DNA of 64,000 nt, taken from assembly GCA_951406725.2 (NCBI GenBank), contig OX597819.1, positions 122,946,001-123,010,000 of the forward strand, written 5' to 3'. Both the position numbers and the translations under genes were made by a program. This document shows, piece after piece, positions 1,288-60,929 of the stretch. The notes under the pieces were generated by a model that was given only the letters and a program-made list of their open reading frames with translations, had not been told where the DNA came from and searched no databases. The stretch's first letter is position 1. Every line of letters begins with the position of its first letter. The stretch is from Octopus vulgaris (Eukaryota).

Positions 1288-4099
1288 CGTTTTTGTGTGT
1301 GTGTATGTTTGTGTGTGTGTGTGTATATAAGTATGTATGTACATATATACATATATATGCACATATATATATAGATATATAGATATATATATGTATATAT
1401 ATATGTATGTATATATATATATATAATGTTTCATGCAGGAAAACTGTACACGAGACCTTTGTGGTGGTGGTGGTGGTGGTAGGGTGGGAAGCAAGCTTCT
1501 TACCACACACCCACGAGAAAATACATCAAACATAATTGCTGAAAATTCATAGGGGGTACATTTTTCATTTCGTTTCATTCGGCACTCCTTTTGATGAGTA
1601 GATCCCTTTTTAACATGCACTGGTGTGCAGAAAACGCCTGCGTGATGTATTCGCTACTGATTCCAAAAAGAAAAAGAATAACAACAAGAAAAAACAAGAC
1701 GAACACTTCGAAGATGTTATTGCTTAACTCATTATAATACAATTCTAATTCTAAGAAAATGGTAAAGTGATGGGTTTGGAGAATATCAAATCAATTGAGT
1801 ACGAAAATAATGAAGAATCGAAAATGACACTTCAAAGGCGACAATCTGTCTCATTTGTTTTCAATGATTCGCCAACTAAGATGTAAGGGAAACAGATATA
1901 AAAAACGAAAAGCACAAGTCATCAAATAGAAGGAAAATGTATGTAGAAAAGAGGTACCCGTAGCATTTCGGTAAACAGAGTAGATAATATACGGAATAAT
2001 AGAATTGCTTCTTTAAAATGAAGTAAAACAGTAAAGATAGTCACTAAAAACGGGAACCAAAATATTCTTGCTGTGCTGTTTCCAGCAAAATTACATTGAG
2101 CAGAAAGAAACCAATATGGGAGAGATAATAAGCAAAAGCGAAAAGAAAAAAAGGTTTTAGAATAGAATGCTTGATTAGAAGAGCTGCCAAATACATTGCA
2201 ATTGCAGATTGTGCAGTTAGCATCAGAAAACTTTAGGCAATCAAATCTTTTGATAGTCAGTTTTTGCCAAATAAATATTGTAAATGATATGATAGCATAG
2301 GCGTTTTGTGGTTGTAATTGTTCCTGTCAATGCAGTTATCGAAGTTGTTGCTGCAATGATCATTGCTGTTGTTGTAGCTGTTGCTGTTATTTTTGTTCTT
2401 TATATTATTGTTGGTGATAATATAAAGATAAGAGACGAACGAATAGACTTATGATCAAGTGCCTTCCAATTGAGACTATCCAGTATTTTATTTCAGATAT
2501 ATTGTGTAAAAGTTTCATTATCCAATGTACTCTCCCTTTTATAAAACGCTAGACAATTATCCGGTGGGATTTAGCTGTTATTTCTAGGAGGTAGATCGAC
2601 CGCATGTAAGATCCATTATTGACTTGGAAATAGGTGTCCTTAGTATGACTTTACTGCATCCGGTGGTGGGAGCACTGGTTCGAAAATTTCCAAGGTCTTG
2701 AGGCGTGTGAAATGTTCTCGGGCCCACTGTAATCAGGACTCCAACAATAGATTATTTAGTATGTCACGGAATTGATTCTGGAAGAAAGTCATTCACAGAC
2801 ACCTCAACGGACCCAGGGTTGATGAGGCCCTTCAGGTTTTTAGTTGCTCATTTAAGAGAAGTTACACCCATATGGATACTGATATTTACTTGATATGGAT
2901 ACTGATATGGATCTTGATATTTTCTGTGCCCATGGTAGTTGTTCCACTCATACCAGTACAAATTGAAAGGCGAGACAATGGACCTGCGTTAGCAAAATTC
3001 ATCACCCCTGCTTCTATCTGAGATAGTTTATCGAGCGTTTAAGAAAGACTAAGGGAGTAAAACACTGCAAGATATCCAGCGGGAGTGACCCTAAGTCAAT
3101 ACCTGGTACTAACTGTGGCTCCATAGATGCTGCGAACGTATCCACTTGCTTTTCTTTTGTGGTGTATCTACGAGTAGTGAGGCAGCAAATGTATTTAAGG
3201 TTAGGCATTTGCTTTCGGTAAACGACCAAGCAGAGAAGAGACGGTAAAGTTATTGAGTCTTAGATACAGGCGACCAACAAGAAAAAAAACAGCCAATCAA
3301 ACAACCTTATGGAACCTGAGTTATAAATAAAGATGTATTACCAATCAGACAGTGTAGATCTGTCATGTGCAACCTTCGGCCCGCGGGAGTATCTGAATGT
3401 CACATCTAAAGAAAAATTACCTTGAAGGTTTTAGTAGTATGGCTAACCAGATGAATAACTGTGTCTCATACGGCCTGTTTCACAAAATATGTTTAGATTG
3501 CATTATAATATTGCTAACGAAATCAAGTCTGCCCCTTTGAAAAACTATGAAATGCACTACCATGACAGTGAAACGACAAATGTTTCTGATATTGGTACAA
3601 GGTGATACATTTAAAGACGATATTTTTTTGCTGAATAAAGCCACATTATTTCACTTATTTTATTGATGGAGTAATGAGGGATACCACAAATGTCATACCA
3701 CAAATGTCATATAAAGCTGCGTCGGCTGCGGGGTCATTCCGAAAAGCTCTATCTGCGACGATTTCATCTCAATCGAAGGAGAGGGGCTTTCTCCGTCCGT
3801 TCAAAGTCTCCCTTGACCTCAAGTGGCCTGAACTCTTTACATGAACACCACCCTGTACATAACTCCATGTCCTCCTACATGGCCTCGCTTTTTGCTTTTT
3901 GAGCCCAAAAATTAACTAATTAACTAACTAACTAAAGCATTTTGCCGGTGCATTTTCAGTGCTGCTATCCATTGCTTTTTATTTATGGAAATAATAATGG
4001 TGATGTTGAAGTTTTGCTGTTTTGAGAAAGAAGAAACCTATGGCATTTATGGATCTGTCACTGAACTTGATAGCGTAAATGAACTGAAATAATAACAAC

Positions 4100-4850
4100 C
4101 AAGAATAGATAGAAGATTGCGAACACTGTGTTGCAGAAGTCAACTGTTATATATTTATACTAGGAATTCTCAATTCTATACAAGATACACAAAACAACAA
4201 AAACAGTAACAAAAAAAATAGATTTGGTAGTGAATTACACACGTGGTTCCATTCTCATAGCCACATATGGAGTTTGAAACCCAACGCAATATCACACACG
4301 ATTAAGTGGAAAATAATAGAAAAATCCACACTTTATGTTAATGGATCAAATAAATGTAAGCTAAGGTTAGCTGAGAAAGCTCAGATCCTTTGCAGATCTA
4401 AAATCTCTAACTCACTACTGAAACCTCGGTCTGAAATTTTCAGCGGCTGTAAACATATGTCTAAGTTTCTTTTGAAGAACTGGAAAATTCTGCCTATACC
4501 AGATTAATTTGTCGCTATTTTTCCCAGCCTTATAATTTAAGATAAAGGGAGATAAATCTTTGAATACCTTCACTTATTTCTGATTTCTTTTTTCGATTCT
4601 CTGTTTTTATACCTTCCACGTTTTCTATATGCTTACTTCTTGACATTTCCCGTTTCTTCTCTCATTCAACTTTTAGTTTCTTATGCTATGTTGTTTGTGT
4701 CTGAAGATTGTGCTATGTTACACATGTTATAATTCATTATTTGGCATTTTCTCAGCGCAAGAAACTATTTGTAGCACATGAAAACGTATTGTGTTTATCA
4801 AATAATATTTATCTCTCACCACATGGAGAACTTTCGGGGAACAGTAGATT
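4100..4850 (+). mobile_element. Penelope-like element 3' remnant (GIY-YIG C-terminus plus pLTR-like 3' region)
   Basis: ORF 4274-4507 reads IKWKIIEKS..Y.NGSNKCKL.LAEK..IL...LL..RSEIFSGCKH.SKFLL, typical of the Penelope C-terminus. A hammerhead motif lies downstream. Boundaries are approximate. Confidence 0.8.
4696..4778 (+). ncRNA. Type I hammerhead ribozyme, complete core
   Basis: Stem I TGTGT/GCACA, core CTGAAGA (4701-4707), stem II TTGTGCT/AGCGCAA, GAAAC (4761-4765), short stem III AC-TATTT-GT and a GUA triplet. Predicted cleavage after 4773. Confidence 0.85.
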
Positions 4851-4856
4851 ATATAT

Positions 4857-4887
<31 letters not shown>

Positions 4888-6429
4888 CATGTATATAATG
4901 ACTGTTTGTATAAATGAGTATACACTCTGTATCTAAAATCGTTCATACTTAATCAGTTGTATGGCTGCAATTAGAAAAGCTACTTGATTAGCTTAGCTGA
5001 ATCTCACATGAATCATACTACATATGATATATATCATTATGTTTAGCACCTCCTAAGCACGTGTTTTTCTTGTGTGCGAGATGGGAATCAGAAATCATTG
5101 TAATAAAGAAGTATCTTTCTCTTTGACGCATACAAATTGTATCAATCCCCTTCGTAGCTGCTAGCTATACTTTTATAGTTTATAGAGTTTACGATCGTTA
5201 TTAATAACTCACTCTATATCAGCATTGCAAACATCTGCAGACTACACATATATACATATATGCGTACACACACACACACACACAATGTATGTATTGATAT
5301 AGGCATATATGTATGGACTGTATATAACCATGTGTTGATTAACGAATTCCAGGTGTCACGTAAGGTAAGAGAATACTTGAATGCTTTGGTGATATGAATT
5401 CGAACCCTGCCATGAATCTCTCCGAATATTGATGGCATCGTAGATTATATGAGTTAAACCAAAATTATATGGTAAAAGTGAAACAATATCGATATTATTA
5501 TATAATACTGGTCAACAAATTTGAAACATGTTTCAAACACGTTTCTTAACGATTCTCGGAATAGTCGCCATATACACTTGTTTCATTTACTTAGTGTAGG
5601 ATGATTGAAAGTTATTGAAGCGGAATCTTTATTTACCGCCCGGTATTTGTTGGTGCTTTTACTTAAATCAAAACACGAATCTCCTTGTCCGTTCTGAACT
5701 CAATTACTAAACCAATTATCTTGTATATTTCATTCCGGGGATTTTCACAAACTCAAGTGCAATTTCAAGAACGGTAATTATGAGATGTTTGTCGGAAACT
5801 CAAATACCCTAGCTTTCAGTTTATTTGGTTATCTTTGCATGAAGCATAATATGAATATTTAAAACCAAATTTGTTATTTTACATCTGAAGCAGTGTAGCA
5901 TTACGATGTATTACAGTATTGAAGAAACTCAACTCAGTAGTATTATTTATCGTTTCTAGATTGTAGTTTTCTCTTATTAGCTTCGTTTATTGTCTTCTTA
6001 ATTAAATAACAACGCCTTGTTGAAGTTAATGCCGTCCTATAGATCCCATTTATCTCGGACCTCAAAAGCATCTAACTCTTATTTAACGTAACGTATACCA
6101 CATATATTCCTTGCGTAACGTATACCACATATATTCCTACATACTTGAATTTTAGTAATCATATAACCATAGTTTTACAGTCATCACAGCTATAAAAGCA
6201 CTGGCATGAACATTAACTCACACCGCAAAATGTCCCTAGCTATCAGAGCTATATAACGAACATTATCAAGGACGAACAAAACACCCCCCGTCCAATGGGC
6301 GGTGCCGAGTTGTCAAACATTTAAACCAAATTTTCCCAAAACAACTTGTCCAACCGTCCCATAGGCCTCCCCTTTGAGAAACACTGATTTAACCTAAATT
6401 TGAGACACCAGCAAAGGAAGAGATAAAGA

Positions 6430-9245: not shown

Positions 9246-9438
9246 AATTATGAGTATAATTATAATTAGGTTTCAGCAAAAAATTTTCTTCACCACATAC
9301 CGAAATTTAGAAATAGCAGTTAAAACTAACTATTTCACTACCGTAAGAAATAGTTAGTCTTAACAGGTATTTATAAATTTCGGTATGTGGTGAAGCAAAT
9401 TTTTTTGCTGAAACCTAATTATAATTATACTCATAATT
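9246..9438. repeat. Long inverted repeat (about 91-bp arms, 10-nt loop)
   Basis: 9246-9336 is the near-exact reverse complement of 9347-9438. Confidence 0.9.
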
Positions 9439-11945
9439 ATATAATTTCTCTCCCAGGAATGACAAGATGTGAACGAGGACAGGCGAGGTCCCTCCTGAAC
9501 CTCATCAACACCCTGTACATGGAGCAAGTAATACTCCAACCAACCAGAGCAGGTAACACACTGGATCTCTGCTTCACAAATAATATGGATCTCATCCATA
9601 ATGTGAAAGTGACACCGACACTACTCTCGGATCACAACACGGTAGAGCTGACCATGTACGGGCCAAAAGAGAGCACGGACATGCAGCCTACAAGAAACCC
9701 TCATAATCTTTCCAGCTTGAACTTCCATAAGGCAAACTGGAAACAAATTGAGAAAGAGATCCTCAAACAAAACTGGCCTGAATGTCTCTCCTCGCCGGAC
9801 ATCGACATGACACTTCAACAATTCATGTCTGTAATGCAAGCCATATGCTACAAATGTGTCCCAGAGAGAAAGGCCACTGTACACAAGAACAAAATCCCTA
9901 GAGAGAGGAAAAAAAAAAAAATTTTAATGAGACGGCGTACAAAAATTTCAAATCGCCTAAACAAACAAATTGAAAGCAGTGAAAAGTCCCGCCTGAAAAT
10001 AAAACTGTTAGAAATTGAAAATTGTCTGCAACTCTCCAATGAGAAGGAGAGAGCAGACAAAGAAGCCTGGGCTATAGACAACATAAAAACTAACCCCAGA
10101 GCTTTCTACAGGTATGCCAAAGAAACAGCTACGGTGCACTGTAGGATAGGGCCACTCCTTGAAAAGGATGGCACACTCACAGGAAAACCAATGAGGGTAA
10201 GTGAAATACTGAATGAACAATTCAAGAGTGATTTCACCCCACCCCTTGGGCATTTCCAAATCAGCAATCCAACTGACTTCTTTACCACTGCAGATATAGA
10301 ATCAGAGGCGGCGACGATAAATTACATCGATATAAAGGAAGACGATGTAATAAAGGCTATAGATGAAATGAAAACAGACTCAGCTATTGGCCCCGATGGA
10401 TTCCCGGCAATCCTCCTAAAAGTATGTAAGAGAGTCCTAGCAAGACCACTGCAGTTCCTCTTTCAGAGCTTCCTTGCAGCTGGCAAACTTCCAAGAAAAC
10501 TGAAGGAAGGTAAAATATGCCCTATTCATAAAGGAGGTAGCAGAGCGGAGGCCAAGAACTACAGACCTATCTCTCTGACCTCACACATCAGCAAGGTCAT
10601 GGAACGAATAGTTAGAAGGAAACTAATCACCTTCCTTGAAGAAAATGACTTGCTGCCTGACACCCAACATGGTTTCCGACCAGGAAGAAGCTGCTTAACT
10701 CAGCTCCTGCAGCACTATGACTGGGTGCTGAAACAACTGCTCAACCACTCAAATGTGGAAGTCATATATCTCGACTTCGCAAAGGCCTTCGATAAAGTCG
10801 ATCATGGAATGATATGTCACAAACTGCGTGATCTTGGCATAATTGGAAAACTAGGAGAATGGCTTCATGACTTTCTAAAGAATAGAAGTCAGGTGGTAGC
10901 AGCCAATGGGGCCACTTCCATTAGCACGCAAATTGTGAGCGGTGTTCCACAGGGCACTGTTTTGGGACCACTACTGTTCATAATGACCCTCTCAGACATG
11001 CCCTCAGCCACGCGGAGAGCCACGATCACAAGTTATGCAGATGATACAAAAGTTTCACAGGCAATACAGAACCCTGAAGACACTAAGCACCTGCAATGTG
11101 AGCTGGACGAAATATACAAGTGGGCTGAAAAGAATAGCATGCAGTTCAATGCTGAAAAGTTTCAAGCTTTATACTATCAGCATGCAAAACTGAATGCAAT
11201 ACCCAATGAATACACTGGACCCGGAGGGATTGCAATCCCAGAGGCACAATCAGTGCGTGACCTGGGTATTCACATGAGTGATGACGCGACCTTTCATGTA
11301 CATGTTGCTAAACTGACAATGAAATGCAGACGGCTGGCTGGATGGATTCTTAGAACCTTTAGAACAAGAGAACAAGAAACCATGATGGTCCTCTGGAAGA
11401 CACTTGTCCTAAGCCACTTTGACTATTGCTCTCAGCTATGGTCACCATCCAGTGTCAAGTTGATCACAGAACTTGAGGCGATCCAACGAAGCTACACGAA
11501 GAAGATAGCCTCTGTGCAGCATACGAGCTACTGGGAGAGACTCAAGAGATTAAAGCTCTATTCCCTGGAGCGTAGGCGAGAAAGATATGCCATAATATAT
11601 ATCTGGAAGATCCTGGAAGGTCTTGTCCCAGACTTTGGCATCGAGAGTCACACAAACGCCAGAACCGGACGCCACTGCGTAGTACCAAGGACTCCAAATT
11701 TGCCATCAAGGTGTAGGACAAGATATTGTGATAGCCTGGGCTTCAGAGGCCCACGGCTCTTCAATGTCCTCCCGAAGAACCTGAGGGACCTGCATGGTGT
11801 AGATGCGGATGTCTTTAAAGTAGGACTGGATCTCTTCCTGTCAGGTGTCCCGGATGAACCAACTTCACGGCAGGAGGTGCAGATGAGGGCAGCTGCATCG
11901 AACTCTCTCATGCATCAGATGGCGTTTGCTAAAAAGCATCCGTGA
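9387..11945 (+). CDS. LINE ORF2 fragment: C-terminus of APE endonuclease plus reverse transcriptase
   Basis: APE end motifs PTRAGNTLDL and SDHN. RT motifs NYRPISLTS, QHGFRPGRSC, YLDFAKAFD, GVPQGTVLGP and YADD. The first ~20 codons derive from the flanking palindrome, so this is not a native start. Confidence 0.9.
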   Translation: MVKQIFLLKPNYNYTHNYIISLPGMTRCERGQARSLLNLINTLYMEQVILQPTRAGNTLDLCFTNNMDLIHNVKVTPTLLSDHNTVELTMYGPKESTDMQPTRNPHNLSSLNFHKANWKQIEKEILKQNWPECLSSPDIDMTLQQFMSVMQAICYKCVPERKATVHKNKIPRERKKKKILMRRRTKISNRLNKQIESSEKSRLKIKLLEIENCLQLSNEKERADKEAWAIDNIKTNPRAFYRYAKETATVHCRIGPLLEKDGTLTGKPMRVSEILNEQFKSDFTPPLGHFQISNPTDFFTTADIESEAATINYIDIKEDDVIKAIDEMKTDSAIGPDGFPAILLKVCKRVLARPLQFLFQSFLAAGKLPRKLKEGKICPIHKGGSRAEAKNYRPISLTSHISKVMERIVRRKLITFLEENDLLPDTQHGFRPGRSCLTQLLQHYDWVLKQLLNHSNVEVIYLDFAKAFDKVDHGMICHKLRDLGIIGKLGEWLHDFLKNRSQVVAANGATSISTQIVSGVPQGTVLGPLLFIMTLSDMPSATRRATITSYADDTKVSQAIQNPEDTKHLQCELDEIYKWAEKNSMQFNAEKFQALYYQHAKLNAIPNEYTGPGGIAIPEAQSVRDLGIHMSDDATFHVHVAKLTMKCRRLAGWILRTFRTREQETMMVLWKTLVLSHFDYCSQLWSPSSVKLITELEAIQRSYTKKIASVQHTSYWERLKRLKLYSLERRRERYAIIYIWKILEGLVPDFGIESHTNARTGRHCVVPRTPNLPSRCRTRYCDSLGFRGPRLFNVLPKNLRDLHGVDADVFKVGLDLFLSGVPDEPTSRQEVQMRAAASNSLMHQMAFAKKHP

Positions 11946-18345: not shown

Positions 18346-21300
18346 CCGTATTTCCCGGCGTCGAAGGCGCTTCTTCCTTGAGGACACGCCCTAATTTTGA
18401 CAAGCAAAACACTGGAAAAAAAAAATAACAAACATAAAATACGATCCTGACACTTCGAGTCTTGTTACCTTTAGAGATGCAATCAAAAAAATATCAACGT
18501 ACGCCACTTAAAATGTCCCTAGCATTTATTTTGGCTGTTTGTCTAATACTTATTTGTGCTTATCCCTTACGTTAACTAAACTTGACTGCCTCCCGTTGTG
18601 ACCCCACACTCGAGTCTGTAAAACTGAGAAAAGACTGCATTCACCTACCTTAGCAATTTGTTTTGTGGGACCGTTAGTACATGGTAGGGTATGTTTATGC
18701 CTACCGTTATGTACCCACTGTAATACTGAAATTATACTACGACAGTGTTGTATGCAGATGGGGTGGATAGGAAGATGCACCCCATACCCCCCAAAACTTC
18801 TCAAATGTGACTGTTTTGTTTAAATATTTATGATAGAAAGCATATTTTTGTACCAGAGCAAGCAACTATTGTAAGGTTCAGTATAGAAATTGATTTTGCA
18901 GTATCTCTGAACATATTACCCTGTCATTTCATTGATCAGTTGCAAAGAATCGAACCTCAGATTTCTGGATCCACTCCTGCACTATCATGCTCCAGTTCGA
19001 CTATTCACTGTTCGGCTCAGCAGTCATTTTTATCCTCATGTGCTTCATCAGGAGGGTTCTTGGCCAATAAAGTCTCAGTTCAAGCAAGTGGATGGGGTTA
19101 CCACTGTCGCAGTATTTTAAGATTTTGGTAGAAATAGATGAGAATTATACAGTACTTTTTGGTCCCAGACAAAGAAAAAAACTAAACTCCACAATAAGAA
19201 AATTACTGTGAGAAATACGGAATAACATTTTATTGTACAGTTACACTTTGTAAAAATATCACATGAACATGACATCCTAAATAGAACAAAATGAAAATAA
19301 AATAAAAATTACAGTAAAATCTACATAATAAGAAAACATTTCAATCATAAAATACTGGAAATGTGTTGCTTATTGCTACCATTTATAGAAGTAAGACACA
19401 AACATGAAATTCCAAATAGAACAAAATAAATACAGAACCGAAATTAAAAGCTGCAGTTGAAATATTACAAATAAGAAAACATATTTAATTTTCAAATCTT
19501 GAAAATATTTTACGTAATTACCATTTGTAAAAATTGCACACAGACATGGAAAAACAAGCGCTACAATTAAATTACGATGGAAAAAGATTAAAAAGTGTGC
19601 AAATGTTAAATGTACGAATATAAAGAAAATATTTCACTCTTCAAATGCTGAAAACTGACTGCAGTCATTCATATTCCCACAACCAGAAAAATCACCACGG
19701 TTGTCAATACTGTCCGAAGTGTCACTATCATCAAACAGAATGTCACCTTCTGTGCCATCTAATGCCACATCTTATAAAATATTTTGCTATTACTTCAATT
19801 TTCACAGCATTCCATGATCTCAGAACTCACTCGCAAACCTGAGCAATTGTTGACCTTTTCAAACGACCCGTTGGTATTAGGTCATGGTCCGTTGGCTCTC
19901 ATCCACTGATTCCACTCTTCTTTCTTAAATGCCTTAAAAGGTCTGTTGATTGATACGTCCAGTGGTTGTAGTTGGGTAGTTAAACCACCAAGGATCACTG
20001 CCATTTACGTTTTCAATTTCTGCACCCTTTCTTCAATAGCCTTTGTTTTGTGGGCACAAAACTGGTAGTTTTTAAGGAGGCCACCGGAACGCCTCGTACA
20101 GACCGTATCTAGCCATAACTTCACTCCCTCTTCATTCATCCACTCCTCTTGGGAAACGTGAATATAAATTCCACGTTGAATTTTATCGTTTGGTTAAGTT
20201 TTCCTCTTGAAAATAAGCAGCGGTGGCAGTATTGTTCCATCACCACAACATAATAATACTGCAGTATAAAGGGTTTTCTCATGCCCAGATGTCTTTACAA
20301 TTACGGTTGTGGAACCACTAACACCTACTGTTCTATTTGATACCACATCAAACATTAGTGGCAACTCATCCGTGTTTCTGATCTGACCCAGATCGTAGTC
20401 AATCTTTTTTCTTGCACTGACTATGAACCTGTGAAATTCGATTGTTTTGTTCTCATAATCTTCAGGCATTTTTGTGCTATTCTTGTGTTCATTCTCATTG
20501 CTAGTCTGTGCCTCTTCATAAATCTGTAACACCAGCTTGATGTACCACGAAAATCATCCATATCTCGTGCTGCTGTCCTCACTTTTGATTCATTAATAAT
20601 CCTTTTTATTGATACTGCCAAACCCGACCTACACTCCGCAGCTATCCACTCCTTCATCTGTTGCTGTAGTTCCGGCCACTTAGCTGCTGTCTTGATGCAG
20701 GCTTCAACAGGTTCTCTTGTTTCTTCCAGTGGCAGATCATTTTCTCAGTTGGCGGTGCTCCAAAATGCCTCTCCGCAGCCATGTTATCATACTGTTTGGC
20801 GTATTCAATCACTTGTAGCTTGTAGCCGATTGTGTAAGAGTATCTTCTGCTTGAGGTTGCCATAATAACGGTTGCGCTAAAAATTCAAATTCTTCTGAAG
20901 TTTCTGATCACTTCTAAGGTCAGCAGATCCCGGTTTGAACTGGTTAAGACCATGGCTTTCAGAGATCAAGAAGGAAGCTTATGTTGCTCTCTGAACACAA
21001 CACGTTTCATAACAGATAGTAAGTGATTACGACACTATTGTTATTAATATTTGCTTGCAAACCCTTTTGACATACCGTAGTTTTACTTCTTTCGTCACTT
21101 AATAATGTTCTCTTAAAGTCAGGTTGTATGAAGAACTTGACAAAACCGGCAATTTAGATACACATGTATATCACTCGTCAGCTACCTCGTCTAACACACA
21201 CTGCCCATATGTGACTGAATTTTTGTGATAACGCATATTTAAAAAAAGATTATGGCCTTTTTTTTATTTACAACTTTAACAAAGAATAATTTATGAACTT

Positions 21301-21603: not shown

Positions 21604-21759
21604 TTGGCGACTTTCTTCCTCCTCCCTTTATATTGGACGTTCCCCTGTTTCCGAAGAAGACCATCTGCTCGAAACATTAAAACATCTTTCTTTCGTTCCC
21701 TAGGCGTCCATGTACCACTTCCTCGCGTTTTTTTTGTGTTTGTTCTTCTTTTTGGATTT

Positions 21760-22399: not shown

Positions 22400-22998
22400 G
22401 TGTGTGGTTATCTTGTTTCTAGCTACATAATTCTAGTTTCAGTCCCAATGTATGGCATTTTGGGCATCTTCTACTTTGGCGTCGGGCTGACCGAACCCTT
22501 GTGACTGGATTTATTAGACATAAAGTGGAAGAAGCCTGTCGCATATGTAGGTATGTGTGTAGGTGTACATTTGCGTGTGTGTGTGCGTGTGTTTGTGTCT
22601 GTGTTTGTCAACCATCACCACTTGACAACCAGTATTGGTGTGTTTACTTTAATGCAAAGGGATTAAGCAAACTAATTTGGCGTCTGAAAGACAGCAATTC
22701 AACCTTCAAGCTGGAATGGTCCATTTTGTCGGTATCTGTTCCGTTTGATAAGGGCAGAAAAATTTGTAGCGTCAGTAATTCTAAATTTTTTCACATATTA
22801 TACGCCAAAGTACCTTTAATACATTCGCCAAAGTACCTTTAATAAATAGTGGTTCGGCAAAAAGGACCGATAGAATAAGTCCCAGACCTTTTTTTAAAAA
22901 AAGGAAATACTAGGGTCGATTCATTCGACTAAAACTTCTTCAAGGCGGTGCCCCAGCATGGCAGTAGTCTAATAACTGAATAGATAAAAGATAAAACG
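22400..22998 (+). mobile_element. Old SINE family A copy interrupted by a Penelope fragment
   Basis: SINE homology stops at GTGTTTAC (about 22647) and resumes at TAGTGGTTCGGCAAAA (about 22847). Confidence 0.75.
22648..22810 (+). pseudogene. Penelope GIY-YIG C-terminal fragment
   Basis: LSKLIWRLKDSNSTFKLEWSIL....PFDKGRKIC follows the pattern seen at 4274-4507 and 33960-34410. Confidence 0.7.
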
Positions 22999-32430: not shown

Positions 32431-33061
32431 CTACAGTAGTTATTCCTCTACTGCAATCTTCACATCTACGTCAAACTGTAGCCGTTGTAATCAGACTTCC
32501 TACAAGCATTTCAATAATATTTTGCTTCATTTCCGTGATTGCTATTAACTATACATTACATTCAATAGCCCTTCTTACATCACGTACGCTCTTCGCTTAT
32601 AAGCGTGCTCTGACATTTATTTTTGTACGTGCCATTATTCTATTTGTGTGTTTGCCATAAATGTTTGCTTTTGTTTATAATACATTACATTCATTGAAAA
32701 AAATTTCAATGTGGTTCTCTCAGGCATAACAAGTAAAATAATTACATGCTACAGATAAGATATATAAGACACTTCAGAAAAGATATTTGAGATCCCTAAT
32801 GCCTACAGCAATCGCGATCTTATTTCATAGACTTTCATTTATTACTGTCAAATTTGTGTTCAAAATACTTTATTTATTATTTAGGTTGCTTAATACCATA
32901 TAATAAACTGCTAAGGAAATTGTTAAGTATACATTTCCATAATCAACTTGAAACCACTCCTAACTGCGGGCTAATTCCACTTACACTGTCCAAAGGAGTG
33001 CGCCATTATAATAAATTACACCGTCCAAAGAACGGGTGCGTTTGCCAGTATATATATATAT

Positions 33062-33379
<318 letters not shown>

Positions 33380-34410: not shown

Positions 34411-34420
34411 GAATTCCTTG

Positions 34421-46282: not shown

Positions 46283-46285
<3 letters not shown>

Positions 46286-46437
46286 GGAGTCGCATGAAAC
46301 GATCGTACTGCCTTACCTGGGTATCCTTGTTGCTTATTTTGATTATAATCACCTTATTTTATTTTAAATTGTATGAATAGTACCATACTAAATTGTGGTG
46401 CCTCAACTTAAGTACTATATTCATCTGAATCTAAAGT

Positions 46438-46440
<3 letters not shown>
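46283..46440 (+). mobile_element. Hammerhead-element 3' fragment between (TA)n tracts
   Basis: GAAAC-GATC-GTA-CTGC at 46296-46311. The downstream sequence is a reverse-complement homologue of 59500-59636. Confidence 0.7.
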
Positions 46441-55329: not shown

Positions 55330-56376
55330 AACTGGTCACTTAGCCTGCTGGAAAGAAAAACCAAATCTTTCAAAGTTAATGATTTCTGGTATTCAAAGAG
55401 AGGAACAAGTTCGATTATTTTAGTCTGAAATATGCACTACCCATAAAAATTACAGGATGCATGGTCCTGGAACACTTCTTTATCATAGGCCTTTCTAGCG
55501 ATATTGTATTTCGGCCATATAACGGACAATAATGCAAACATTTTCGTTTCAATACAATATCGCCAAGATATCACAATTAAATGATAACAATCTAAAGAAG
55601 AACAACTATTAAACAAAGTGCCATTACTAACTTGCAGATACAACAACTAATTACCAAACACAACAACGTCCACACAGCAACAACTTTATACATACATAAG
55701 AAATTTTAACTCAAGGTGAGCATCTGCTACTGGTTGAAAATTGACAAGAAAAACTTCCACCGTGTTGAAAATAACGGCAAAAATAAAGAAACATAAATAT
55801 TTGTTTAAAAAGAAAAGATAAAGATAAAAAAATATGCTACACAGATCAAATTATCATAAGCCTTCTGCATCTTCTTTATCATCTTCTTTATCTTTAACAC
55901 TTCTTTATCATAGGCCTGCTGCATCTGAGATGGCCTGAGACAAAGCAACAACAGAATCCACAATTGTTTCTAGCGATATTGTATTTAGGCCATATAACGG
56001 ACAATAATGGAAGCCCATTCGTTTCACTACAATATCGCCAAGATATCACAATTGAATGATAACAATCTAAAGAAGAAAAAGTATTAAACAAAGTGTCATT
56101 ACTAACTTGCAGATACAACAACGTCCACGCAACAACAACTCTTGGATCATAAATGTCATAATCTGAATGAGCAACTCTTGAAACGTTGATAAATTTTTCT
56201 GAAATTACGCTCAGGGGGCTGAAATAAACAAATGATACATTATATAATGTACTTAGGAGTTAGGTCTGATGAGGCCACTTTGAGCAGGACTGCGGCCTGT
56301 GGTAGGGTTAACCTTCCAGCTCTTGCGGGAACTCCTTTATAGCTACAAGAAGGAGCTGAAAAACTCTTGGCTTTAA

Positions 56377-56512
56377 CCCTTTCAGCCTTGATCTCCTGAA
56401 CCTCATTTGACCATATAACTGGCTTCTTGATGCACTCCACCTGTAGAGCGGTGCTACGGTATAGAGAAAATTAAGCCATCCACCGGTAAACCGGTGTTAC
56501 GGGCTCAAAGAG
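56377..56512. mobile_element. Probable piggyBac-type MITE
   Basis: TTAA-CCCTTTCAGCC ... GGCTCAAAGAG-TTAA. Confidence 0.55.
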
Positions 56513-56559
56513 TTAATGGTATCTCAAAAGGCCTGATTGGAGGCTCAATCTTCCGAGTT

Positions 56560-56698
56560 CTTTTACAGGGAGTTCTGAAGGACCGCTGCAATAAGTGTAT
56601 GAATTTGAGAGGGAAATATGTTGATTAAAATAATAATTGATTTGTTCTCCCGTATATTCTTTTACTCATGTCGAGGAAATTATTAGTACTCCCACGTA
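56560..56698 (+). mobile_element. mariner 3' end fragment
   Basis: LKDRCNKCMNLRGKYVD-stop followed by a TIR-like end TTATTAGTACTCCCACG-TA. Confidence 0.6.
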
Positions 56699-57442
56699 AG
56701 TAAACTGGAGCAATGTGAAAATGAAGCGTTTAAATGGAGGACAGGACGCATCACCCTGTCTGAAAATAGGAACCAAATTCTTACAAGAATCGAAGGTACA
56801 GTAACAGATGAAATACCTTTAGTCATAGGTCTGCTTAATCAGCGTTGTTATGGGGTTAAATAAGCAAGAGTGTTAATCGCCTGAATTCTATCCATACATG
56901 AGAAAATTTAACTCAAGGTGAGCATCTGCTACGGGTTTGAAAATTTGGAAGAAAAACTTCCACCGTGTTGAAAATAACGGCAAAAATAAAGAAGCATAAA
57001 TATTTGTTTAAAAAAAAGATAAAGATAAAAAAAATATGCTTTACAGATCAAATTAAGATAAAATCGAAAAACCAAACAGTAAACAAACAAAACAAAATTA
57101 ATAAAACGAAGTAAATTTACGCAACCCGTTCAAAATCTATAAATAGATTTACTTGAGACTGACTCGAATTTGCTATAAATACATTAAAAATAAAAGAAAA
57201 ATAGTTGAAAATTAAACCCTAATTTAGTCACTTAATCAATTTTTGCCTTGGTTTTTATTTATATTTTCTCTTTTCCACTTATGTATGTAAGCATTCAATC
57301 GAAAATTAAACTAGCTGCCATTTTCAATGAAATCTTTCAAAATATATATATTGATTAATTTTTCGCAAAGTTTCTTCGCCACTGATTTCATAATAAATAT
57401 GGTAGTTGTGTACAGAAGTCGTGTTGCTATTTACTTTTTGTC

Positions 57443-59488: not shown

Positions 59489-59622
59489 TTAAGTTCAGCA
59501 AAATTTAGATTCAGATGAATATGGTACTTAAGTTAGATGCACCAGAATTTTGTATTGTGTTATCCATATAAATTCGTGGGGTGATTATAATCAAAATAAG
59601 CAACAAGAATAACTTCGGTAAT

Positions 59623-59707
59623 GTGGTACGATTGTTTCGCACTACATCATTTTGTTAAATGTTGCAATTATTACAACAGTTTTAAAATGCTGAGCACTCA
59701 TCAGCCA
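59623..59707 (-). ncRNA. Type I hammerhead ribozyme with long stem II, complete core
   Basis: TGG-CTGATGA-GTGCT...AGTGC-GAAAC-AATC-GTA-CCA. Stem II extends through CATTTT/AAAATG and TGTTGTAA/TTGCAACA. Confidence 0.78.
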
Positions 59708-60012
59708 TTAATAGAGGTTTTCCATTAATACATAATTTTCATATCAAGTGATAATATTATAGAGAAGGTAGATATATAGACAAAAATGTGGATTTAAATT
59801 TTAAGAACATTTAAGGTAGTGGAGTTTATCAACTGATATATATATGCAATTTTGGTAAATATATCATCGGTTGTATGAGATATTAGTGCTATTTTCATTT
59901 TTGCGTAATTTAAATTCATAATTTAAATCCACATCTTTGTCTATATATCTACCTTCTCTATAATGTTATCACTTGATATGAAAATTATGTATTAATGGAA
60001 AACCTCTATTAA

Positions 60013-60075
60013 TGGCTCATGAGTGCTCAGCATTTTTAAACTGTTGAAATGATGTAGTGCGAAACGATCGTACCA
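60013..60075 (+). ncRNA. Type I hammerhead copy with a core substitution (CUCAUGA)
   Basis: TGG-CTCATGA-GTGCT...AGTGC-GAAAC-GATC-GTA-CCA. Palindromic stem III ACGATCGT is intact. Confidence 0.7.
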
Positions 60076-60223
60076 AATTACCGAAGTTATTCTGGTTGCT
60101 TATTTTGATTATATATATATATATATATGAGTTTAGTAAAATTTTGATTCAGTTGAATAAGCAACAAAGATATGCAGAGTTGATGCAAGAGGTAATGCAG
60201 AGGTAATATATATATATATATAT

Positions 60224-60744: not shown

Positions 60745-60929
60745 CACTGTGATCTGAATAAATTGTCGTCTAAATTACGCAAAAATGAAAATAGCACTGA
60801 TATCTCATTTCAACTGATGATATATTTACCAAAATTACATATATATCTTGAGATACTACAGAGTAAATTTCGTTTAAAAAAGTCCCAACTCTCAACTTAT
60901 CTTTCTTCCTTATCGCATACCTTGTTGTC

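Follow-up and report, generated by a model that had tools for sequence, protein, structure and literature searches.

The window analysed here is a 64-kb stretch of DNA, and positions ~4259–4849 of it hold the 3' end of an element, in the order endonuclease tail, 3' UTR, hammerhead and terminal hairpin, followed by a (TA)(TG)n microsatellite (Table 1). The hammerhead sits in the 3' UTR near the 3' end of the element, ~70 nt 5' of the microsatellite.

Table 1. Features of the element and its 3' junction (positions within the window).
Feature	Position	Strand	Basis or remark
Last 82 codons plus stop codon of the RT-endonuclease ORF of a Hydra-clade Penelope-like element, 5'-truncated past GIY-YIG	4259..4507	+	homology
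Hydra C-terminal motif set: CxxC (second C to R), E, N (to K), CxH	4355..4456	+	54 relatives
T-rich 3' UTR, stop codon to ribozyme	4508..4695	+	relatives' stop-to-core distance of 76-211 nt
Type I hammerhead ribozyme motif	4696..4778	+	scan, shuffles, relatives' model
Core CUGANGA (C3-A9), intact, here CTGAAGA	4701..4707	+	structural scan
7-bp stem II and its 39-nt loop; core halves 53 nt apart	4708..4760	+	scan
GAA, 9-nt helix III at 4764-4772 (near-palindrome, one U.U mismatch) and site	4761..4773	+	
Short hairpin similar to the 'tail' hairpin that ends Hydra elements	4813..4831	+	~40 nt 3' of the cleavage site
(TA)3 then (TG)n microsatellite, 3' junction, likely insertion site	4850..4887	.	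sequence

The ORF tail lies within a stop-to-stop frame at 4109–4507. An exhaustive protein search found 515 relatives at E<=0.001 (the best 150 of the 515 were listed), the tail scored 99.5 bits against a profile built without its own sequence, and it shares 40% identity with the final part of an RT-bearing ORF in the related locus L001. Protein homology starts at ~4259–4262, where 92 of the 149 tblastn matches of the cluster begin, which corrects the start at 4274 given in an earlier note on this DNA. Upstream of 4259, homology was not significant, whether to the profile (20 of 300 shuffles score as high) or to the best single relative (29 of 500 shuffles). The relatives' alignment runs CNC-x5-C, YIG, and then CxLCxxEK, LNKRSE and CxH; the copy at 4259–4849 has no RT, linker or GIY-YIG motifs and retains the last 82 codons only. 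By the motif definitions in section 11 and the Fig. S7 legend of PMC8557442, the first C, the E and the CxH are intact in the tail, and the second C of CxxC and the N are substituted. The earlier note had described the end of a Penelope GIY-YIG ORF; homology identifies a Penelope-like tail, but the GIY-YIG motifs themselves are absent from the fragment. Pfam recognised nothing in the tail or in 10 relatives, searches of a protein atlas, of word-index homologues and of solved-structure sequences returned nothing useful for the tail, and no Hydra RT match was found anywhere in the 64-kb window. Sequence similarity supports assigning the tail to a Penelope-like element of the Hydra clade, with the hammerhead as part of its 3' UTR. 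Since the copy carries no RT or GIY-YIG motif, this clade assignment is based on the tail.

Twelve related loci (L001–L012) came from a scan of bacterial and archaeal genome contigs, and all are filed under bacterial metagenome-assembled genomes. They are probably animal contigs binned into these assemblies; we took them as animal DNA because (TA)n tracts occur in 7 of the 12 and because the hammerhead of L009 resembles, by eye, that of the published Hydra-2_aMil. The related loci carry an RT (YRDD), with the Hydra RWK and DKT motifs in L005 and L012; Hydra-clade elements have a CxCX5C linker and GIY-YIG motifs and lack CCHH, and the linker and YIG are present in relatives. In L006, Pfam gives a weak match to GIY-YIG (E 3e-4) that falls short of the curated cut-off. 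A hammerhead lies 76–211 nt past the stop codon in 10 of the 12 loci (nine by structural scan and L005 by covariance model; the distances in L005 and L009 are approximate, their frames being shifted). The two remaining loci lack the 3' end: L001 stops 112 nt past the stop codon and L011 is cut within the endonuclease. In an alignment that was fitted to the structure, the relatives' fold covaries, with both-sided changes at 9 of 11 pairs and 94% of cells paired. L006 and L012 have several clustered hammerheads, some of them forming inverted pairs. The association of ORF and hammerhead is not surprising: it is already published, the Hydra table of PMC8557442 giving the same architecture of an ORF followed by a 3'-UTR hammerhead, and it holds in 10 of the 12 relatives.

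A structural scan of both strands of the window found the type I hammerhead at 4696–4778 to be complete, with CUGANGA, GAAA and NUH in type I order. Stem I pairs TGTGT (4696–4700) with GCACA (4774–4778), giving 5 bp that include one G.U; stem II pairs TTGTGCT (4708–4714) with AGCGCAA (4754–4760), giving 7 bp with one G.U and a U-A first pair. GAAA occupies 4761–4764 and GTA 4771–4773, so that cleavage is predicted 3' of A4773. As a monomer, the motif can close its three helices with 5, 7 and 2 bp. C3 lies 193 nt from the end of the stop codon at 4507. The earlier claim of a full type I hammerhead on the same strand, about 190 nt past the ORF stop, with a 5-bp stem I, a 7-bp stem II and GUA at 4771–4773, is borne out by the sequence, the scan and the shuffles. 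An alternative register using GAAA at 4780–4783 has a 9-bp stem II, but its stem I is all wobble pairs and its helix III is broken; we rejected it as the ribozyme and retained it as a competing fold.

With at least 5 bp in stem I and at least 7 bp in stem II, the motif occurred in 0 of 300 shuffles of the window (block-wise dinucleotide, both strands) and in 0 of 20000 shuffles of the 300 nt 3' of the stop codon; relaxing the stems to 3+3 bp gave a hammerhead motif in 1 of 20000 local shuffles. The hammerhead is a real motif, far beyond chance. That it is an accidental arrangement in AT-rich DNA we consider vanishingly improbable, even though several results could be read that way. Rfam reported no hammerhead at gathering score in the whole window or at E<=10 in positions 4000–6200, and the hammerhead fold differs from the minimum-energy fold. 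A covariance model built from 10 relatives placed 4695–4780 as the top match in the 64 kb, but with an E-value of 0.16, which is weak because 41 nt of the loop are skipped. Rfam at gathering score is likewise blind to the hammerheads of the 12 related loci, so that its silence here is uninformative. Besides the shuffles, the position of the motif, where relatives carry theirs, argues against accident.

Comparison with published families clarifies which details of the ribozyme are unusual. File S2 of PMC8557442 yields 25 Hydra families once one duplicate row is merged. The base after CUGANGA is U in 15 of the tabulated families, opposite U in 14 and opposite C in 1; the same position is G-C in 7, G.U in 3 and U-A in none. 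On this sequence comparison, U after the core is the clade norm and the A is one base away from the usual U.U. The U-A first pair of stem II had been singled out as unusual, which applies to the A opposite U (0 of 25) and not to the U itself. GUA is the cleavage site in 11 of the 25 families. Helix III is a 9–10-nt near-palindrome in both the Hydra table and the relatives, and the 2-bp stem III that had been listed as an oddity is this self-complementary Hydra helix III, here 9 nt with one mismatch.

Judged by sequence, loop II is the one unusual feature of this hammerhead and a real outlier, as the earlier note had said of its size. The core halves are separated by 53 nt, compared with 12–24 nt in the motifs of the 12 relatives and at most 26 nt in the 25 Hydra families tabulated in File S2. 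Precedents exist outside Hydra: File S2 lists a 35-nt loop II in PLE-X1_sMoe, and half cores 35–50 nt apart have been noted in Naiads. The structure of loop II is no better than random, since 417 of 1000 shuffles fold as well.

We lean slightly towards the long loop being a family trait, in which case the parent would have had an elongated stem-loop II and the genome would hold a functional variant of the ribozyme. The 7-bp stem closes exactly at GAAA, an outcome of ~1e-3 for random bases, and a second element in the window (59.6–60.1 kb) has spacers of 59 and 38 nt and stem II strands that resemble those of the hammerhead at 4696–4778; the listed loop of PLE-X1_sMoe also favours a family trait. 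These points have to be set against the absence of any spacer above 26 nt among the relatives' motifs and the tabulated Hydra families, the lack of structure in loop II beyond that of shuffles, and the fact that the second long-spacer element has no established Hydra identity. Furthermore, the 5' strand of stem II prefers the cleavage-site strand (-10.3 kcal/mol) over its own partner (-7.4 kcal/mol). A smaller but appreciable probability attaches to an insertion or duplication private to this copy, within an originally short Hydra-type stem II. Loop II is prone to indels in this window, as the near-identical arms at 59.6–60.1 kb differ by a 21-nt indel in the loop; a 6-nt direct repeat lies inside loop II; and a short Hydra-type stem of 4 bp is nested at 4709–4712 with 4721–4724, with U.U at its base. 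A random insert, however, would rarely bring a 7-bp complement to a place beside GAAA (again ~1e-3), and a nested 4-bp match would arise far more easily by chance.

A broader proposal is that the genome harbours Penelope-like families whose hammerheads have an expanded stem-loop II (38–59 nt), are missed by short-spacer descriptors and by Rfam, and remain able to cleave, either as dimers or in the presence of the protein of the element, and that some elements scored as having half cores may carry complete ribozymes of this kind. We regard this as rather unlikely. A literature search for a long-loop Penelope hammerhead or an octopus case found only PMC8557442, with most subscription papers out of reach, and long-loop variants may already have been described in Arkhipova et al. 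2017 or in paper supplements.

The ribozyme had also been thought better preserved than the ORF, a claim that the comparison does not support. Neither stop codons nor frameshifts interrupt the ORF tail. Among the 22 columns that at least 80% of 54 relatives conserve, it differs at 3, two of them being the second Cys of CxxC and the Asn; as many differences are found in 13 of these 54. The ribozyme core is intact, but stems I and II each contain a G.U and helix III a mismatch, and at 10% neutral divergence 12 core bases would stay unchanged with a probability of 28%. With one genomic copy at hand, decay is not separable from the family sequence. It is very improbable that host selection has kept the ribozyme after the death of the element, as a domesticated self-cleaving site in a host transcript. 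The contrast between 12 of 12 invariant core bases intact and two near-invariant protein residues changed would fit such selection, but modest decay would by chance leave a core intact, it was this intactness that drew attention to the motif, the open ORF tail differs at no more conserved columns than 13 of the 54 relatives do, and helix III is mismatched.

In the parent element, the stretch 4259–4849 would have formed a pseudo-LTR, placing the hammerhead twice in each transcript. By analogy with other Penelope-like elements, two self-complementary helix III segments would then pair and the RNA would be cut after GUA, and published work on such elements suggests that the element's protein may aid cleavage. 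Frangieh et al. (PMC11167929) describe an anole Penelope hammerhead whose cleavage required the protein of the element and without which insertion in vitro still took place. In Cervera and de la Pena (PMC4209133), a single minimal motif showed no cleavage and dimers cleaved weakly.

Most likely, the lone copy in the window would cleave weakly or not at all. It encodes no enzyme, there is no partner ribozyme in the window and helix III is mismatched; moreover, a forced helix III self-dimer costs +4.3 kcal/mol here, compared with negative values in 11 of the 12 relatives, and the 5' strand of stem II has the competing preference noted above. Equilibrium folding (P 1e-5 to 1e-9) had pointed to a dead ribozyme, but we dropped this reading because the relatives score alike. 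With flanks of 5 and 20 nt, the copy has a folding penalty of 6.2 and 10.4 kcal/mol, inside the relatives' range (2.9–10.6 and 3.6–11.9 kcal/mol, respectively), so that folding does not demonstrate that the ribozyme is dead.

Hydra elements prefer (TA)n for insertion (PMC8557442, as given in File S1), and here (TA)3 and (TG)n are found at the 3' side only, with no such tract at the 5' side. The tail-hairpin pattern occurs 3' of 5 of the 12 relatives' hammerheads and in 2 of 5000 local shuffles; since the pattern was defined with these sequences in view, the counts do not test it independently. By self-BLAST, 4240–4850 occurs once in the window, and this single copy has neither a partial tandem (pseudo-LTR) nor an inverted truncated copy. 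As far as the available literature describes them, such tandem or inverted copies are typical of full insertions and not required of truncated ones, and frequent 5' truncation with a terminal tail is standard for Penelope-like elements. We found no convincing target-site duplication, the longest flanking repeat being 7 nt and 57 nt outside the 5' end. Reverse transcription may have started from a nicked TA-type microsatellite, close to the 3' tail, and would have stopped inside the endonuclease coding region. With high confidence, we read the locus as a solitary, 5'-truncated and partly decayed copy of ~590 bp (4259–4849) of a Hydra-clade Penelope-like retrotransposon, inserted by this proposed route, with a ribozyme that would have acted through dimers and now probably cleaves poorly.

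Other parts of the window contain further candidate elements, and its repeats suggest an octopus as host. Between (TA)n tracts at 59490–60113 lies a head-to-head inverted repeat, with arms at ~59586–59800 (-) and 59920–60113 (+), both of which end in a hammerhead. On the minus arm the core is intact and the spacer measures 59 nt; on the plus arm a G of the core has become C, the spacer measures 38 nt and helix III is a perfect palindrome of 8 nt. The sequence has the appearance of a PLE insertion accompanied by a truncated copy in inverted orientation. We identified no ORF in it, and comparison of three short motifs with published consensus files left its helix III and 3' end unmatched. A partial copy of the same family lies at 46283–46440 (+), a 3' piece that starts with the GAAA half of its hammerhead; another, at 60846–60730 (-), covers some of the upstream part and lies beside an open frame that we take to resemble the C-terminus of a non-LTR RT. 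By eye, a short element between (TA)n tracts at 33050–33290 (-) has a minimal hammerhead-like motif, with CCGAUGA for CUGAUGA, 3-bp stems and GAAACGU without helix III; a degenerate copy of it lies at ~21646–21758 (+). The earlier note had tied the ribozyme motifs of the window to Penelope, which is confirmed for 4696–4778 but not for the others, as no Penelope ORF was detected beside them.

A second Hydra-clade fragment, of another family, is found at 34419–34000 (-), between (TA)n and (TCTA)n; it covers the linker and GIY-YIG region with internal stops, and is without a 3' end or hammerhead. At 22651–22809 (+), a small degraded Hydra endonuclease fragment lies within other repeats. A relaxed scan found no hammerhead at either fragment. 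Unrelated features include an 863-codon frame at 9354–11945 (+), whose reverse transcriptase and weak endonuclease match mark it as a non-LTR retrotransposon ORF, and two overlapping frames at 20194–20744 (-), presumably resembling a decayed pogo/Tigger-type transposase. Two pairs of direct repeats of 156–175 nt, 91–93% identical and rearranged in order, occupy 55490–57060, and amid them a weak 3+3-bp hammerhead-like match at 56263–56378 is at chance level.

The find is real, well explained and largely known: a fragmentary Hydra-clade member with its expected ribozyme. It extends by one fragment a clade in which hammerheads are already known, including in octopus, and its importance would be modest, conditional on the long loop II being conserved within the family. 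A conserved long loop would broaden the pattern by which Penelope ribozymes are searched for, and would make it possible to ask in a natural system whether loop II stays free or binds the protein of the element.

Two known types of element were considered and rejected for this locus. Non-LTR retrozymes, which are thought to derive from PLE pseudo-LTRs, similarly carry type I hammerheads in short non-coding animal repeats, but they form tandem arrays of 150–450 bp as described in the accessible parts of PMC7229834 and bioRxiv 10.64898/2026.07.22.740005; tandem repeats are required of them, and here we found a single copy with an ORF end and no tandem copy. Naiad PLEs have an N-terminal endonuclease and no canonical hammerhead, whereas here the ORF closes with the endonuclease tail, and a full hammerhead lies 3' of it.

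Among known ribozymes, the minimal hammerheads of metazoan PLEs with a palindromic helix III, in the accessible part of Cervera and de la Pena (2014, PMC4209133), share the type I topology, a short helix I (4–5 bp), a long helix II (7–8 bp in Schistosoma) and a weak, self-complementary helix III suited to dimers. They differ from the motif here in their much shorter loop 2 and in a conserved G10.1-C11.1 pair that is absent here. PLE-X1_sMoe, as listed in File S2, is similar in its long stem II and large loop II; it is a spike-moss element of the Chlamys group without endonuclease, and its protein is unrelated.

The closest resemblance in what is available of Craig et al. (2021, PMC8557442) is to the Hydra clade (Hydra-1_Obim, Penelope-1_HM and Hydra-2_Amil). 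Shared with it are an endonuclease tail with the CxxC, E, N and CxH positions, a type I hammerhead placed in the 3' UTR close to the element's 3' end, a U following CUGANGA, a 9-nt near-palindromic helix III and a microsatellite at the junction. The UTR just past the stop codon resembles that of Hydra-1_Obim by eye, although the different hammerhead sequence and C-terminus place the two in separate families. In contrast to the clade as tabulated, this copy is 5'-truncated, carries substitutions at the second Cys of CxxC and the conserved Asn, closes the base of stem II with U-A where U.U is usual, and separates its core halves by a spacer well beyond the published maximum.
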